A DNA stretch of 64,000 nucleotides from a virus. Its lineage: Duplodnaviria > Caudoviricetes. Every line of letters starts with the position of its first letter. The stretch's first letter is position 1. Below the pieces are notes generated by a model. It searched no databases. It worked only from the letters and a program-made list of their open reading frames with translations, and was not told where the DNA came from. Location: IMG/VR virus record IMGVR_UViG_3300020598_000119. One strand, written 5' to 3'. Made by a program: the position numbers and the translations under genes. Of this stretch, positions 5,897 to 47,611 are shown in pieces.

Positions 5897-5990
5897 TGGT
5901 GCGGACGGCAGGACTTGAACCTGCACGGAGAGTAGCAAGCTCTCCACTGGGACCTGAACCCAGCGTGTCTACCAATTCCACCACGGCCGC
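5897..5990 (-). tRNA. tRNA-Leu(CAG), long variable arm
   Basis: Cloverleaf with anticodon loop TTCAGGT and encoded CCA. Confidence 0.92.
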
Positions 5991-6008
5991 ATATTCTTTG
6001 ATTTGACT

Positions 6009-6092
6009 TGGTGTGGACGGCGGGGATCGAACCCGCACGCACGAAGCGGTGAATTTTAAGTTCACTGCGTCTACCTATTCCGCCACGTCCAC
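6009..6092 (-). tRNA. tRNA-Leu(TAA)
   Basis: Cloverleaf with loop CTTAAAA and CCA. Confidence 0.93.
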
Positions 6093-6158
6093 ATTTTTTA
6101 TTCGGCGGTAAGTAAGAAGAAGATTGATTGGTTGGTGGTGTCTTCTGCAGGCAGTCAG

Positions 6159-6242
6159 TGGTGCGGCTGAGAAGAGTCGAACTTCCACGGGTTGCCCCAC
6201 AGCGACCTCAACGCTGCGTGTCTACCATTCCACCACAGCCGC
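6159..6242 (-). tRNA. tRNA-Leu(GAG)
   Basis: Cloverleaf with loop TTGAGGT and CCA. Confidence 0.93.
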
Positions 6243-6280
6243 ACAGTTCCGCTGATCAACGACGGCGAAGTCACAAGTAT

Positions 6281-6355
6281 TGGAACCGAAGGATGGAGTC
6301 GAACCATCGTCTCTGGAGCCACAATCCAGCGCTCTAACCATTGAGCTACAACGGC
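6281..6355 (-). tRNA. tRNA-His(GTG), no G-1, two U-U mismatches in the acceptor stem
   Basis: Loop TTGTGGC, T arm GATGG-TTCGACT-CCATC, CCA. Confidence 0.85.
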
Positions 6356-6365
6356 AAACAGGCAT

Positions 6366-6509
6366 CGCTAAGTAAAGGGACTCGAACCCTTAACGCAGAA
6401 TCGGTCTGGTTCGTATCTGCCATTGGTTTCTGCCATGAACCAGGGGTATGAATACCCATTCGTGATTGGCTTGACCTCAACGTCGTCTACCACTTCCGAC
6501 ATACTCAGC
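6366..6509 (-). ncRNA. tRNA-like RNA with a large structured insertion
   Basis: Acceptor GCTGAGTA/TACTTAGC, D-arm GTCGGAAGTGGTAGACGAC and T arm AAGGG-TTCGAGT-CCCTT. The middle holds extra hairpins. No CCA. Confidence 0.6.
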
Positions 6510-6542
6510 GAATTTCGATAAGGACCCGAGGCCCTTGAAACT

Positions 6543-6645
6543 TGGTGGCAGAACAGGCACTTGATCTCAGCGGATGATCAATCCGTGATCTTTGACCAGT
6601 ACGCCGACTCCGACGAATGTACCTAGGATACGTCAGGGTCCTGCC
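6543..6645 (-). ncRNA. unknown structured RNA with an acceptor-like stem and ACCA end
   Basis: GGCAGGAC/GTTCTGCC-ACCA closes two internal hairpins; no T-loop. Confidence 0.45.
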
Positions 6646-6652
6646 ATTTAAG

Positions 6653-6729
6653 TGGTCGGAGTGGCAGGCTTCGAACCTGCGACCTATGGTTCCCAAAACC
6701 ATCGCGCTACCAGGCTGCGCTACACTCCG
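6653..6729 (-). tRNA. tRNA-Pro(TGG)
   Basis: Cloverleaf with loop TTTGGGA and CCA. Confidence 0.93.
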
Positions 6730-6794
6730 AATTCTTCATGCACGGGCCGAGCAGCGCCACTGAAGGCAGTAGGTCTCGGCCCGTTAGTTTAACT

Positions 6795-6886
6795 TGGTGG
6801 GGGACGGCTAGAGTTGAACTGCTTGCCGCATAGGGACCCGGTTTACAGCCCGGTGACAGGACCGCCCATCCTTATTGGCGTCCCCC
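6795..6886 (-). tRNA. atypical tRNA-Tyr(GTA)-like, 8-bp acceptor stem
   Basis: GGGGGACG/CGTCCCCC-ACCA, loop CTGTAAA, short bulged T stem and non-canonical D arm. Confidence 0.6.
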
Positions 6887-6891
6887 ATAAA

Positions 6892-7105
6892 TGGTGGAGA
6901 TGACAGGATTTGAACCTGCGCAGACCGTGATGACCTTCGCATTACCAAAGGCTCCCAATTGGTTTGAAACGCGCTTCCCTACTCGGCCCTCTCTGGCTGT
7001 TTCGGTGCATCCGCAAAGACCCCAATCGAGATTTGTCACGTCCCTGTTTTACCAGAGCCGGATTCCGTTTCCCGGTGCCCATGCCGACCTCAGGCGGACA
7101 TCCCC
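6892..7105 (-). ncRNA. 214-nt RNA with a tRNA-Ala/tmRNA-like acceptor and T arm
   Basis: GGGGATG/CATCTCC-ACCA with G3:U70 and A73; T arm GCAGG-TTCAAAT-CCTGT; long structured interior. Confidence 0.55.
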
Positions 7106-7107
7106 AT

Positions 7108-7186
7108 TGGCTTGAACGGCAAGGATTTGAACCTGCGACCTCCTGGACCCATTCCAGGCGCGCTCCCAGACTGCGCTACATTCAAG
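7108..7186 (-). tRNA. degenerate tRNA-Pro-like
   Basis: Pro-type D arm; anticodon loop AATGGGT lacks U33; bulged T stem; CCA. Confidence 0.6.
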
Positions 7187-7406
7187 ACAAACTAGATTTG
7201 ACCAAAACATGGTCAGAAACTTTTGGCACTCACAGCGACGCCAAGGATCATCAGTCGCTGTCTCTCCACGGGAGAGGGATCTTCAGGCTCGTCCACGATC
7301 CGCCGCCTGTTCCTAAAAGTGCCACCGAAACAGCAGCTGGCCAGCCGCCATTCCGCAGGCTTCCTGGGATTGTTCTAGAATTTGCCCAGTATAGCCTTTG
7401 AAGCTG

Positions 7407-7489
7407 TGGTGCGGATGAGAGGAATCGAACCTCCACGGTTGCCCGTCAGAACCTAAATCTGATGCGTCTACCAATTTCGCCACATCCGC
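7407..7489 (-). tRNA. tRNA-Leu(TAG)
   Basis: Cloverleaf with loop TTTAGGT and CCA. Confidence 0.93.
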
Positions 7490-46361: not shown

Positions 46362-46478
46362 TTTTATTCCTTCTCTTTAAATATCCCAGATATTGTGACG
46401 ATAATAATGTGAGGCGTCAACAATATTGCAGGAAAAATGCGGCTGCGATTTATTTAAATGAAATCGAAAAAATATCGT

Positions 46479-46507
46479 TTGACAAGTGCTAGCCGACCAT
46501 TCATAAA
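46479..46507 (+). promoter_or_regulatory. sigma70-type promoter of array 3
   Basis: TTGACA-N17-CATAAA with upstream A-tracts. Confidence 0.75.
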
Positions 46508-46558
46508 GGGGACAAGCGATTGGGCGGATGCCCGTCCATTCAACTTTGAGAGAGTACA

Positions 46559-46633
46559 ATGCGCAACACGAGAACGACATGGACATGTTGGAGAACCTAC
46601 AGGGGCTTCCCTGGAGGCGGAGACGTCTGTTGA
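46559..46633 (+). CDS. leader peptide of the Trp/Thr/Cys/Arg tRNA array (24 aa)
   Basis: MRNTRTTWTCWRTYRGFPGGGDVC*, with a GAGAGAG RBS. Confidence 0.88.
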   Translation: MRNTRTTWTCWRTYRGFPGGGDVC

Positions 46634-46660
46634 CTCGTTGAGCGCAGTTACCGCAACCAA

Positions 46661-46694
46661 GAAGCCTCGAATGAAAATTCGGGGCTTTTATTTT
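46661..46694 (+). terminator. attenuator terminator of tRNA array 3
   Basis: AAGCCTCGAA-TGAAAA-TTCGGGGCTTTTATTTT. Confidence 0.88.
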
Positions 46695-46710
46695 GTCTGG
46701 AATTCAGTTT

Positions 46711-46785
46711 AGGGGTGTAGCCAAGTGGTTAAGGCAGCGGTCTCCAAAACCGCCATCGGGGGTTCGAGTCCCTCCACCCCTGCCA
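46711..46785 (+). tRNA. tRNA-Trp(CCA)
   Basis: Loop CTCCAAA, GCCA end. Confidence 0.94.
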
Positions 46786-46797
46786 CCGAAAGATAAG

Positions 46798-46965
46798 ATG
46801 ATGGTAAATAGACTTTTGGAGTTGATGCTTGAAGGAGAAACAGATAACAGTATTCTTCAGGATGCGTGGGATAAAATGCAGGAGCAAAAGAGGCTTGCCC
46901 TAGAGGAAATTGGTCAGAGAATACAGAATGGAGAGCCTCTCACTGTTGAGTTTGACTTGGATTGA
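46798..46965 (+). CDS. small acidic hypothetical protein within the tRNA array
   Basis: 55-aa ORF filling the spacer between tRNAs. Confidence 0.45.
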   Translation: MMVNRLLELMLEGETDNSILQDAWDKMQEQKRLALEEIGQRIQNGEPLTVEFDLD

Positions 46966-46978
46966 TACAAGTAATTCT

Positions 46979-47054
46979 GCCAAATTAGCTCAGTTGGTAG
47001 AGCAGCGCTTTCGTAAAGCGAAGGTCGGGAGTTCGAGTCTCTTATTTGGCACCA
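46979..47054 (+). tRNA. tRNA-Thr(CGT)
   Basis: Loop TTCGTAA, ACCA end. Confidence 0.93.
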
Positions 47055-47171
47055 GAGGTCCGCTATAAAATGCGGATTCCGCGCAGCCTAATTAGTTGCG
47101 CCATGGCTTTTCGGGCGGTTGAGCCGGATAATCAACTGCCCCGCGAATATAAGCGTCGTGAGACGCGATGT

Positions 47172-47247
47172 GCCGTTGTAGCTCAGCTGGTAGAGCGCCT
47201 GATTTGTAATCAGGATGTCACGGGTTCGATCCCTGTCGGCGGCACCA
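47172..47247 (+). tRNA. tRNA-Thr(TGT)
   Basis: Loop TTTGTAA, ACCA end. Confidence 0.94.
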
Positions 47248-47326
47248 TAAAATCTGGCGTGCGGTTGTTAAAGGATTAAAAGCCTTTCCCCGCCAGTAGG
47301 AATAAAACTGGTAGCAATGCCAGTAC

Positions 47327-47400
47327 GGCCTGGTGGCGGAGTGGTTACGCGGCGGACTGCAAATCCGCTTACCCGAGTTCGATTCTCGGTCAGGCCTCCA
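47327..47400 (+). tRNA. tRNA-Cys(GCA)
   Basis: Loop CTGCAAA, U73, CCA. Confidence 0.94.
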
Positions 47401-47430
47401 AATAAATATCTAGTGCATCTGATGCACTTT

Positions 47431-47506
47431 GGTCCCGTAGCTCAGTGGAAAGAGCAGGAGCCTTCTAAGCTCAAGGTCGTAGGTTCGAATCCTACCGGGA
47501 TCGCCA
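47431..47506 (+). tRNA. tRNA-Arg(TCT)
   Basis: Loop CTTCTAA, CCA. Confidence 0.93.
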
Positions 47507-47536
47507 CCGTTCATACTTTGGGAAATCCAAAGTATT

Positions 47537-47611
47537 GTCTCCGTAGCTCAGTGGAAGAGCAATTTCCTCCTAAGAAATAGGTCGCAGGTTCGAATCCTGC
47601 CGGAGACGCCA
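47537..47611 (+). tRNA. tRNA-Arg(CCT)
   Basis: Loop CTCCTAA, CCA. Confidence 0.93.

Follow-up and report, generated by a model that had tools for sequence, protein, structure and literature searches.

The window analysed here, the whole 64,000-nucleotide stretch of IMG/VR record IMGVR_UViG_3300020598_000119, carries three arrays of transfer RNA (tRNA) genes, each of which is preceded by a short open reading frame (ORF) rich in the codons read by the tRNAs of that same array, with an intrinsic terminator between the two. Each array is quite probably a tRNA operon under ribosome-mediated transcription attenuation, in which the leader would sense how easily the operon's own tRNAs allow their codons to be decoded, and the tRNAs are probably made only when this decoding falters. 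The observation is real and far from random, and comparative evidence supports the attenuator reading well. This reading is carried by the anatomy of the arrays, a codon match at the level of isoacceptors, the conservation of both across distant replicons, and covariation in the antiterminator of the first leader, all of which are established here.

In the proposed mechanism a sigma-70-type promoter would start transcription, and a ribosome would translate the short leader. With all tRNAs of the operon available and charged, the ribosome would clear the control codons, the terminator would form and the polymerase would stop before the first tRNA gene. Were any of these tRNAs scarce, uncharged or damaged, the ribosome would stall in the run of control codons, and a segment of RNA just behind that run (strand 2) would then pair with strand 3, the terminator's 5' arm, so that the terminator would be blocked and the tRNA genes transcribed. 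The tRNA products would relieve the stall, which would close a negative feedback loop on tRNA supply. Translation of the leaders, stalling, the switch and the feedback are steps that we infer.

tRNA arrays and leader reading frames

A total of 23 tRNA genes in three arrays were called by ARAGORN in the 64-kilobase (kb) window, and each array has a leader ORF upstream:

5897..7855, (-) strand: array A1, ten tRNA genes (Leu x5, His, Pro x3, Tyr), in transcription order Tyr-GTA, Leu-CAA, Pro-TGG, Leu-TAG, Pro-TGG, Pro-TGG, His-GTG, Leu-GAG, Leu-TAA, Leu-CAG
9999..11236, (+) strand: array A2, Ser-GCT, Ser-TGA, Ser-CGA, Gln-CTG, Gln-TTG, Ser-GGA, Gln-TTG
46711..47611, (+) strand: array A3, Trp-CCA, Thr-CGT, Thr-TGT, Cys-GCA, Arg-TCT, Arg-CCT
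8068..8229, (-) strand: leader ORF L1, 53 codons, Shine-Dalgarno site 8241-8237, control run of 13 Leu/Pro/His/Tyr codons at 8148-8110
9848..9940, (+) strand: leader ORF L2, 30 codons, Shine-Dalgarno site 9835-9840, control run of 15 Ser/Gln codons at 9857-9901
46559..46633, (+) strand: leader ORF L3, 24 codons, Shine-Dalgarno-like site 46548-46554, control run at 46568-46594

The ARAGORN calls bear out the statement of an initial annotation of this DNA that the amino-acid sets of the three arrays are disjoint. All three leaders are genuine open frames with a Shine-Dalgarno-like site 5-11 nucleotides (nt) upstream, and the control runs, which make up 25-50% of each leader, encode the peptides LPHPPHLLPLPYL (L1), QSSQQQSSQSSSSSS (L2) and TRTTWTCWR (L3). 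The run of L2 uses the codons TCG, TCC, TCA, AGC/AGT, CAG and CAA, to be compared with the anticodons CGA, GGA, TGA, GCT, CTG and TTG of its array, and that of L3 contains ACG and ACA (Thr), AGA (Arg), TGG and TGT, with AGG following at codon 15. No anticodon species of any array lacks a cognate codon in that array's own leader. When the longest run of codons cognate to each array was sought in all six frames of the 64 kb, it lay each time in the array's own leader (13, 15 and 9 codons, with runners-up of 7, 5 and 5), and the maximal run in 60 shuffled windows was 10, 8 and 6 codons for the A1, A2 and A3 sets, respectively. The codon match is far beyond chance, and the earlier claim that the control codons match each array's own tRNAs is confirmed by these longest runs and by the coverage of all anticodons.

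Related replicons and conservation of the codon match

Relatives of the window were sought with the protein encoded at 8373-9404, between A1 and A2, as the marker. The closest genome is that of Mesorhizobium sp. SP-1A, where the same region is found with ~94% identity on a 1.19-Mb contig; the marker search led to the Rhizobium leguminosarum TP16 plasmid pRlX5 (a 1.32-Mb circular record, 48% identity), and it also uncovered 22 metagenome loci and a Pararhizobium sp. BT-229 contig of 1.6 Mb. The layout recurs in SP-1A, pRlX5, BT-229 and 18 metagenome loci (GC 0.49-0.65), and the latter keep the order of Leu/Pro/His/Tyr array, marker protein and Ser/Gln array, with leaders present in every metagenome locus that has enough upstream sequence. 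It is kept across replicons whose neighbouring protein shares just 45-56% identity. The carriers of the arrays are megaplasmids, and the replicon of the window is a rhizobial megaplasmid. No relative of the marker protein was found in the viral contigs that were searched, and individual tRNA genes were the sole matches of the region in a megablast search against plasmids and phages. The marker protein occurs without arrays in the megaplasmid of Methylorubrum extorquens AM1, in Methylobacterium hispanicum and in two distant metagenome loci. The DNA of the window is present in full in soil metagenome runs, from which it may derive.

The SP-1A contig holds four additional arrays within 130 kb, carrying Phe and Arg (ACG, CCG); Lys; Glu and Asp; and, in a 13-gene array, Asn, Val, Gly, Ala, Met, Ile and Thr-GGT. 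pRlX5 and the Pararhizobium contig show an identical division into seven amino-acid groups, and in each of the three complete replicons the seven arrays together cover all 20 amino acids. The initial annotation had predicted attenuated arrays for the remaining amino acids elsewhere on the replicon, and four further ones are indeed found in SP-1A and in each of the two distant replicons. Their leaders all have a Shine-Dalgarno site, cognate codons and a terminator; the codon match is strong for the large array and the Glu/Asp array, moderate for Phe/Arg and weak for Lys, where the leaders of the arrays (L007, L014, L027) have two Lys codons only and share Lys-Arg-Lys alone. Sorted in this way by amino acid and isoacceptor, the seven operons would give each group of tRNAs its own sensor. 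The additional arrays also have a second small codon-rich ORF, conserved in the three replicons, after the terminator and before a promoter-like box that is described below; these ORFs (at L004, L008 and L009 in SP-1A; at L012, L013 and L016 in pRlX5) are Arg-rich, Asp/Glu-rich or start with Met-Asp-Asp-Asp-Gly-Asn.

In a matrix of upstream regions against arrays from four replicons, the diagonal reached 10/10 cognate codons (once 9/10) for the three array types of the window, and off-diagonal cells were at most 8, save those against the seventh array, whose codon set is large (18 codons). In 19 of 24 rows the diagonal held the highest value; it failed to do so for Lys and Phe/Arg arrays and for one of the large arrays. 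The leader frame and its start are kept in all homologues. Across 13 lineages the composition of the L1 control run is kept and its order is not, and the remainder of the peptide drifts; between the window and SP-1A, one change within the run replaces Pro by Leu, a residue that also belongs to the array's set. Codon content also follows gene content, since His codons are present in the leaders of the nine lineages with tRNA-His and missing from those of the two lineages that lack this tRNA. Two apparent exceptions for Tyr probably hide an atypical tRNA.

Different arrays hold different isoacceptors of Thr and Arg, and the leader codons follow this division. In the leaders of the Thr-TGT/Thr-CGT arrays, 12 of 15 Thr codons are ACR, versus 6 of 6 ACC for the Thr-GGT array (Fisher p = 0.0015); of the Arg codons, 7 of 9 are AGR in the Trp/Thr/Cys/Arg leaders, versus 16 of 17 CGN (Fisher p = 0.0004). 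As the three lineages are related, the evidence is weaker than these p-values suggest, and the direction is uniform. A lack of codon-anticodon correlation in homologous arrays had been named by the initial annotation as refuting its proposal, and such a correlation is present in the matrix, the isoacceptors and the His codons.

Codons that follow isoacceptors fit a sensor of individual tRNAs and would not be needed by a sensor of amino-acid supply. They bear on a reading in which the same attenuator hardware has amino-acid starvation as its natural signal, through uncharged tRNA, as in the trp, his and leu operons. A stalled ribosome cannot distinguish a missing from an uncharged tRNA, all established leader-peptide attenuators respond to charging, and the anatomy seen here is identical to theirs. 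We nevertheless consider this reading improbable, since the leader codons track the isoacceptors held (ACR versus ACC for Thr, AGR versus CGN for Arg) and not the amino acid, since the leaders sample the codon of every isoacceptor, which is needless for a pure amino-acid sensor, and since an output of tRNA brings no relief of an amino-acid shortage.

Promoters, terminators and gating of the arrays

The elements that flank the leader ORFs in the window are as follows:

8298..8303, (-) strand: L1 -35 box TTGACA, with a -10-like hexamer 17 nt downstream at 8281-8276
9795..9800, (+) strand: L2 -35 box TTGACA, with a -10-like hexamer at 9817-9822
46479..46484, (+) strand: L3 -35 box TTGACA, with a -10-like hexamer at 46501-46506
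7991..8040, (-) strand: L1 intrinsic terminator, hairpin 8040-7998 with a free energy (dG) of -27.6 kcal/mol, T-run to 7991
9968..9992, (+) strand: L2 intrinsic terminator, 8-base-pair (bp) GC-rich stem, 5-nt loop and T-run, dG -13.6 kcal/mol
46660..46698, (+) strand: L3 intrinsic terminator, 13-bp stem, GAAA loop and T-run, dG -17.5 kcal/mol

A hexamer of the form TCAT.. lies 17 nt beyond the TTGACA box in all three leaders. TTGAC was found at a conserved distance from the start codon in 33/33 distinct homologous upstream regions, namely 64-100 nt before it in 13/13 distinct homologous Leu/Pro/His/Tyr leaders and 50-69 nt before it in all Ser/Gln leaders. A matching hairpin with T-run is present in 12 of 14 distinct Leu/Pro/His/Tyr leaders. 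The L2 terminator ends 6 nt before the first tRNA of A2, and in the Ser/Gln arrays of 16 loci terminator and first tRNA are 0-17 nt apart, too close for a further promoter to fit between them; in A3 the terminator ends 12 nt before the first tRNA. With spacers as short as those of the Ser/Gln arrays and A3, transcription from the leader promoter must pass the terminator. The spacer of A1 is longer, with 137 nt between the L1 terminator and the first tRNA.

The layout of promoter, ribosome-binding site, leader, antiterminator/terminator and tRNAs that the initial annotation had described as common to the arrays holds in all three and is conserved across replicons. Its further claim that each array is gated is in keeping with the short spacers of A2 and A3; for A1, gating may be incomplete on account of a conserved box in its spacer, which is considered below.

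In two soil metatranscriptome runs from separate studies, one error-free contig each covers 8042-8256 or 8049-8253 alone, a span that runs approximately from the predicted start to the foot of the L1 terminator, and one of the runs has additional contigs past the L1 terminator and over L2. These contigs, which are assembled and carry neither strand nor true ends, give a weak hint that the L1 leader is expressed. Positions 8979-9726 of the window are without an RNA contig, and depth after the L1 terminator is low in run X12; neither is evidence of absence.

The antiterminator and the switch

Folding was modelled with the ribosome placed on the control codons and the 3' arm of the terminator not yet made. 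In every lineage and for all array types tested, these folds bring the stretch directly behind the control run into a helix with the terminator's 5' arm. Pairing of the control region with strand 2 (1:2), which would favour termination in the absence of a stalled ribosome, is present in the minimum-energy folds of the window leaders. The strands in the window are:

8094..8104, (-) strand: L1 antiterminator strand 2, in the Gly-Gln-Arg codons just after the control run, pairing with 8030-8020
8030-8020, (-) strand: L1 strand 3, in the 5' arm and loop of the L1 terminator
9914-9922, (+) strand: candidate L2 antiterminator strand
46602-46609, (+) strand: L3 antiterminator strand 2, with the terminator 5' arm at 46661-46668 as strand 3

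In L1, strand 2 reads GGTCAGCGGG, and strand 3 reads CCCGCTGACC or differs from this by wobble changes. When 11 distinct leaders were aligned (columns 9-19 x 101-111), the 11-bp helix was paired in 121/121 cells, with 4 of its 11 pairs changed on both sides. None of 500 shuffles reached this, shifted registers had 21-48% of cells paired, and RNAalifold recovered the same 11-bp helix unaided. The compensatory changes convert Gln to Arg in the peptide; since they alter the peptide, selection acts on the RNA and not on the peptide. The L1 pattern of strands 2 and 3 was also scanned for in 401 genomes of the order, with G001 as the sole true match. Pattern hits in 39 other genomes were set aside as chance, since they arose at the same rate as in a reversed control; the system was not found there, which does not imply its absence.

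For L2, a GCGGG-type motif complementary to the terminator arm lies 13-22 nt past the control run in 13 of 15 Ser/Gln leaders. For L3, the helix of strands 2 and 3 appears in single-sequence folds of three lineages in which both strands differ in sequence.

These comparisons also bear on the view that the short ORFs encode functional small proteins, or are chance ORFs lying by ordinary terminators, and regulate no tRNA. It finds support in the Rfam search, in which no leader family (His_leader, Leu_leader, Thr_leader and others) matched at the gathering threshold; the best scores were 28.2 bits against a threshold of 49 (on the wrong strand) and 21.3 against 50, and both cover terminator hairpins alone. 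We hold it to be very improbable all the same: the runs are the longest in the window and stand only before the matching array, the peptide drifts while codon composition and RNA pairing are kept, the compensatory changes alter the peptide, and in 16 loci the Ser/Gln terminator abuts the first tRNA.

Weighing of the mechanism and its possible trigger

Several observations weigh against attenuation as the explanation of these arrays. No promoter of the three met the Escherichia coli -10 rule of a consensus scanner, so that the promoters are proposed because of the TTGAC box at its conserved distance in 33/33 upstream regions; a simple terminator scanner called the A3 terminator alone and missed those of L1 and L2. 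The window L2 has only CGCGG in place of the full motif, its candidate strand 2 pairs weakly (dG -8.1, z -0.1), and, the L2 terminator arm being invariant, no covariation signal is possible there; for L3, an alignment-based fold of just three lineages gave local hairpins and not the long-range helix. The leader of locus L067 has Tyr codons, yet no tRNA-Tyr was found at that locus even by Infernal. The spacer between the L1 terminator and A1 holds, at 7948-7933 on the (-) strand, a box TCTTTGA[A/C]AT[C/T]GTG (with TTGAAA or TTGACA) that is conserved in most Leu/Pro/His/Tyr loci and could serve either as a second promoter that escapes attenuation or in RNA processing; in three replicons, the large array has a similar box ahead of its first tRNA. 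The four additional arrays share a strong promoter-like box (TTTTTGTTGTTGAC...) between terminator and tRNAs, which implies that attenuation is not the sole control there. The RNA contigs over L1 show neither ends nor strand, and a hairpin alone can break an assembly. Lastly, more tRNA is no help under amino-acid starvation, so that the benefit of the circuit hinges on its true trigger.

It seems somewhat more probable than its converse that the seven operons form a modular tRNA homeostat with a resolution down to the single isoacceptor, that is, a full spare set of tRNAs in which each operon senses the decoding speed of its own tRNAs and replenishes them on demand. Such a homeostat could counter tRNA-cleaving toxins, or could let the replicon function in hosts with ill-fitting tRNA pools. 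Candidate triggers or benefits may include the replacement of cleaved tRNAs, the buffering of supply for a host-hopping replicon and a general response to translation stress; the counter-defence role put forward in the initial annotation is one possible trigger among several. The GC content of the window is ~50% (related array-bearing loci, 0.49-0.65), and at this GC within a Mesorhizobium genome the codon usage of the replicon may fit its host poorly.

A different view of the trigger is that the leaders are general sensors of translation stress, so that any slowing of elongation, for instance by ribosome-targeting antibiotics, induces the spare tRNAs. The RtcB gene of the window lies 1.4 kb from array A3, and the L-array of Anabaena sp. 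PCC 7120 is silent and is induced by translation inhibitors along with rtcB (PMC8421152). As the control run makes up 25-50% of the leader, a global slowing would also park ribosomes there. Against it stands the fact that Anabaena relies on promoter repeats and a presumed repressor and not on leaders (PMC8421152), and that seven sensors with tRNA-matched codon sets are needless for a global signal. We judge this view unlikely, to the same degree as the starvation signal, and retain the sensing by each leader of its own operon's tRNAs as the preferred explanation.

Comparison with known systems

Attenuators of amino-acid operons comprise a promoter, a translated leader with regulatory codons and a mutually exclusive antiterminator and terminator, and leaders for several amino acids are found in thr and ilv. 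All the elements of the trp, his, leu, thr, ilv and pheA attenuators are present in the window leaders. The arrays differ from these operons in that the regulated genes are tRNAs and not enzymes, so that the product acts directly on the sensor, and in that control codons are provided per isoacceptor, for up to eight anticodon species in the window arrays; in related replicons, ten anticodon species are covered by the leader of the 13-16-gene array. The hardware is that of classical leader-peptide attenuation, as described for amino-acid biosynthesis operons (PMC1183508), and the target class, tRNA genes, is new. A full-text literature search, outside which most subscription journals lie, found no description of leader-peptide control of tRNA genes, in agreement with the initial annotation, whose author knew of no attenuation described for tRNA operons.

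The pheST leader pheM senses one amino acid and controls a synthetase, and T-boxes bind uncharged tRNA directly, with no leader peptide. Like both of these, the arrays would couple the expression of a decoding component to the state of the cognate tRNA; unlike them, the window arrays have the tRNA genes themselves as output, behind a leader ORF. A Phe-rich leader at the E. coli tRNA-Phe gene pheV was rejected as a parallel, as the K-12 sequence offers only ~105 nt and contains no such ORF.

Phage-encoded tRNAs replace host tRNAs that are depleted or cleaved by anticodon nucleases, and we know of no feedback sensor described for them. The replacement of depleted or cleaved host tRNAs is the role that the initial annotation had proposed for the present arrays, which would make them alike in this respect; the arrays differ from phage tRNAs in lying on megaplasmids, with no relative of the marker protein in the viral contigs searched.

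The arrays resemble L-arrays in being supernumerary tRNAs on plasmids or mobile elements and in their link with rtcB. L-arrays are single mixed arrays of 20-43 genes, in contrast to the seven small amino-acid-sorted operons found here, each with its own attenuator. The array of Anabaena sp. PCC 7120, the trn operon and the best-studied of the spare tRNA arrays, is controlled, with rtcB, via direct repeats in the promoter, and the words leader, attenuation and terminator are absent from that report (PMC8421152). For tRNA arrays of mobile DNA, including the Mycobacterium and Acidithiobacillus units, three reports propose a stress back-up or a counter-defence (PMC4758250, PMC5966550, PMC12803027). 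By Tran et al. 2016, a tRNA array unit is defined by at least 20 tRNA genes at a density of at least 2 per kb (PMC4758250); the window arrays, with 10, 7 and 6 genes, are smaller than such units, and their density is high.

Transcription of tRNA genes is usually held to be under growth-rate control at promoters, and, to our knowledge, little has been established on how bacteria adjust the supply of tRNAs to codon demand. If the proposed mechanism is true, these arrays would provide the first instance of tRNA genes controlled by ribosome-mediated attenuation, as well as the first sensor in nature of tRNA rather than amino-acid availability, with direct feedback from decoding speed to the synthesis of each tRNA. 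It would also account for the sorting of the spare tRNAs by amino acid, would allow tests of what supernumerary tRNAs on mobile DNA cost and bring, and would provide ready-made codon-specific sensors of tRNA depletion for the study of anticodon nucleases, toxin-antitoxin RNases and translation stress, as well as parts for synthetic tRNA-supply circuits.

Neighbouring genes and other features

The product of the gene at 8373-9404 (+), used above as the marker, has 343 amino acids, belongs to no known family and has conserved Cys and His residues; it always lies between two divergent arrays. In a protein atlas look-up all leads for this product were below 0.9, among them 'elongation factor P hydroxylase'. 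A gene for a small helix-turn-helix protein lies directly after A2 on the opposite strand, at 11264-11539 (-).

Directly after A3, the window encodes an ADP-ribosylglycohydrolase (-) and the RNA ligase RtcB (+) at 47779-50493, and this stretch is flanked on either side by second copies of gyrB and gyrA and an nrdHIEF operon. Genes of the window other than the arrays include those for a ClpB-like ATPase, GyrB, GyrA, the ADP-ribosylglycohydrolase, RtcB, NrdHIEF and DNA methyltransferases; an integrase-like protein and many proteins without a family are further encoded.

Array A3 contains an ORF of 55 codons at 46798-46965 (+), between tRNA-Trp and tRNA-Thr, with a plausible ribosome-binding site, and its product had no match in Pfam. 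In SP-1A, the gene at 1803-1879 (-) of locus L005, a homologue of the second Pro-TGG gene of the window (7108-7185), was called with a GGA (Ser) anticodon and has the length of a Pro-tRNA, which could reflect either a change in the anticodon loop or a mis-call.

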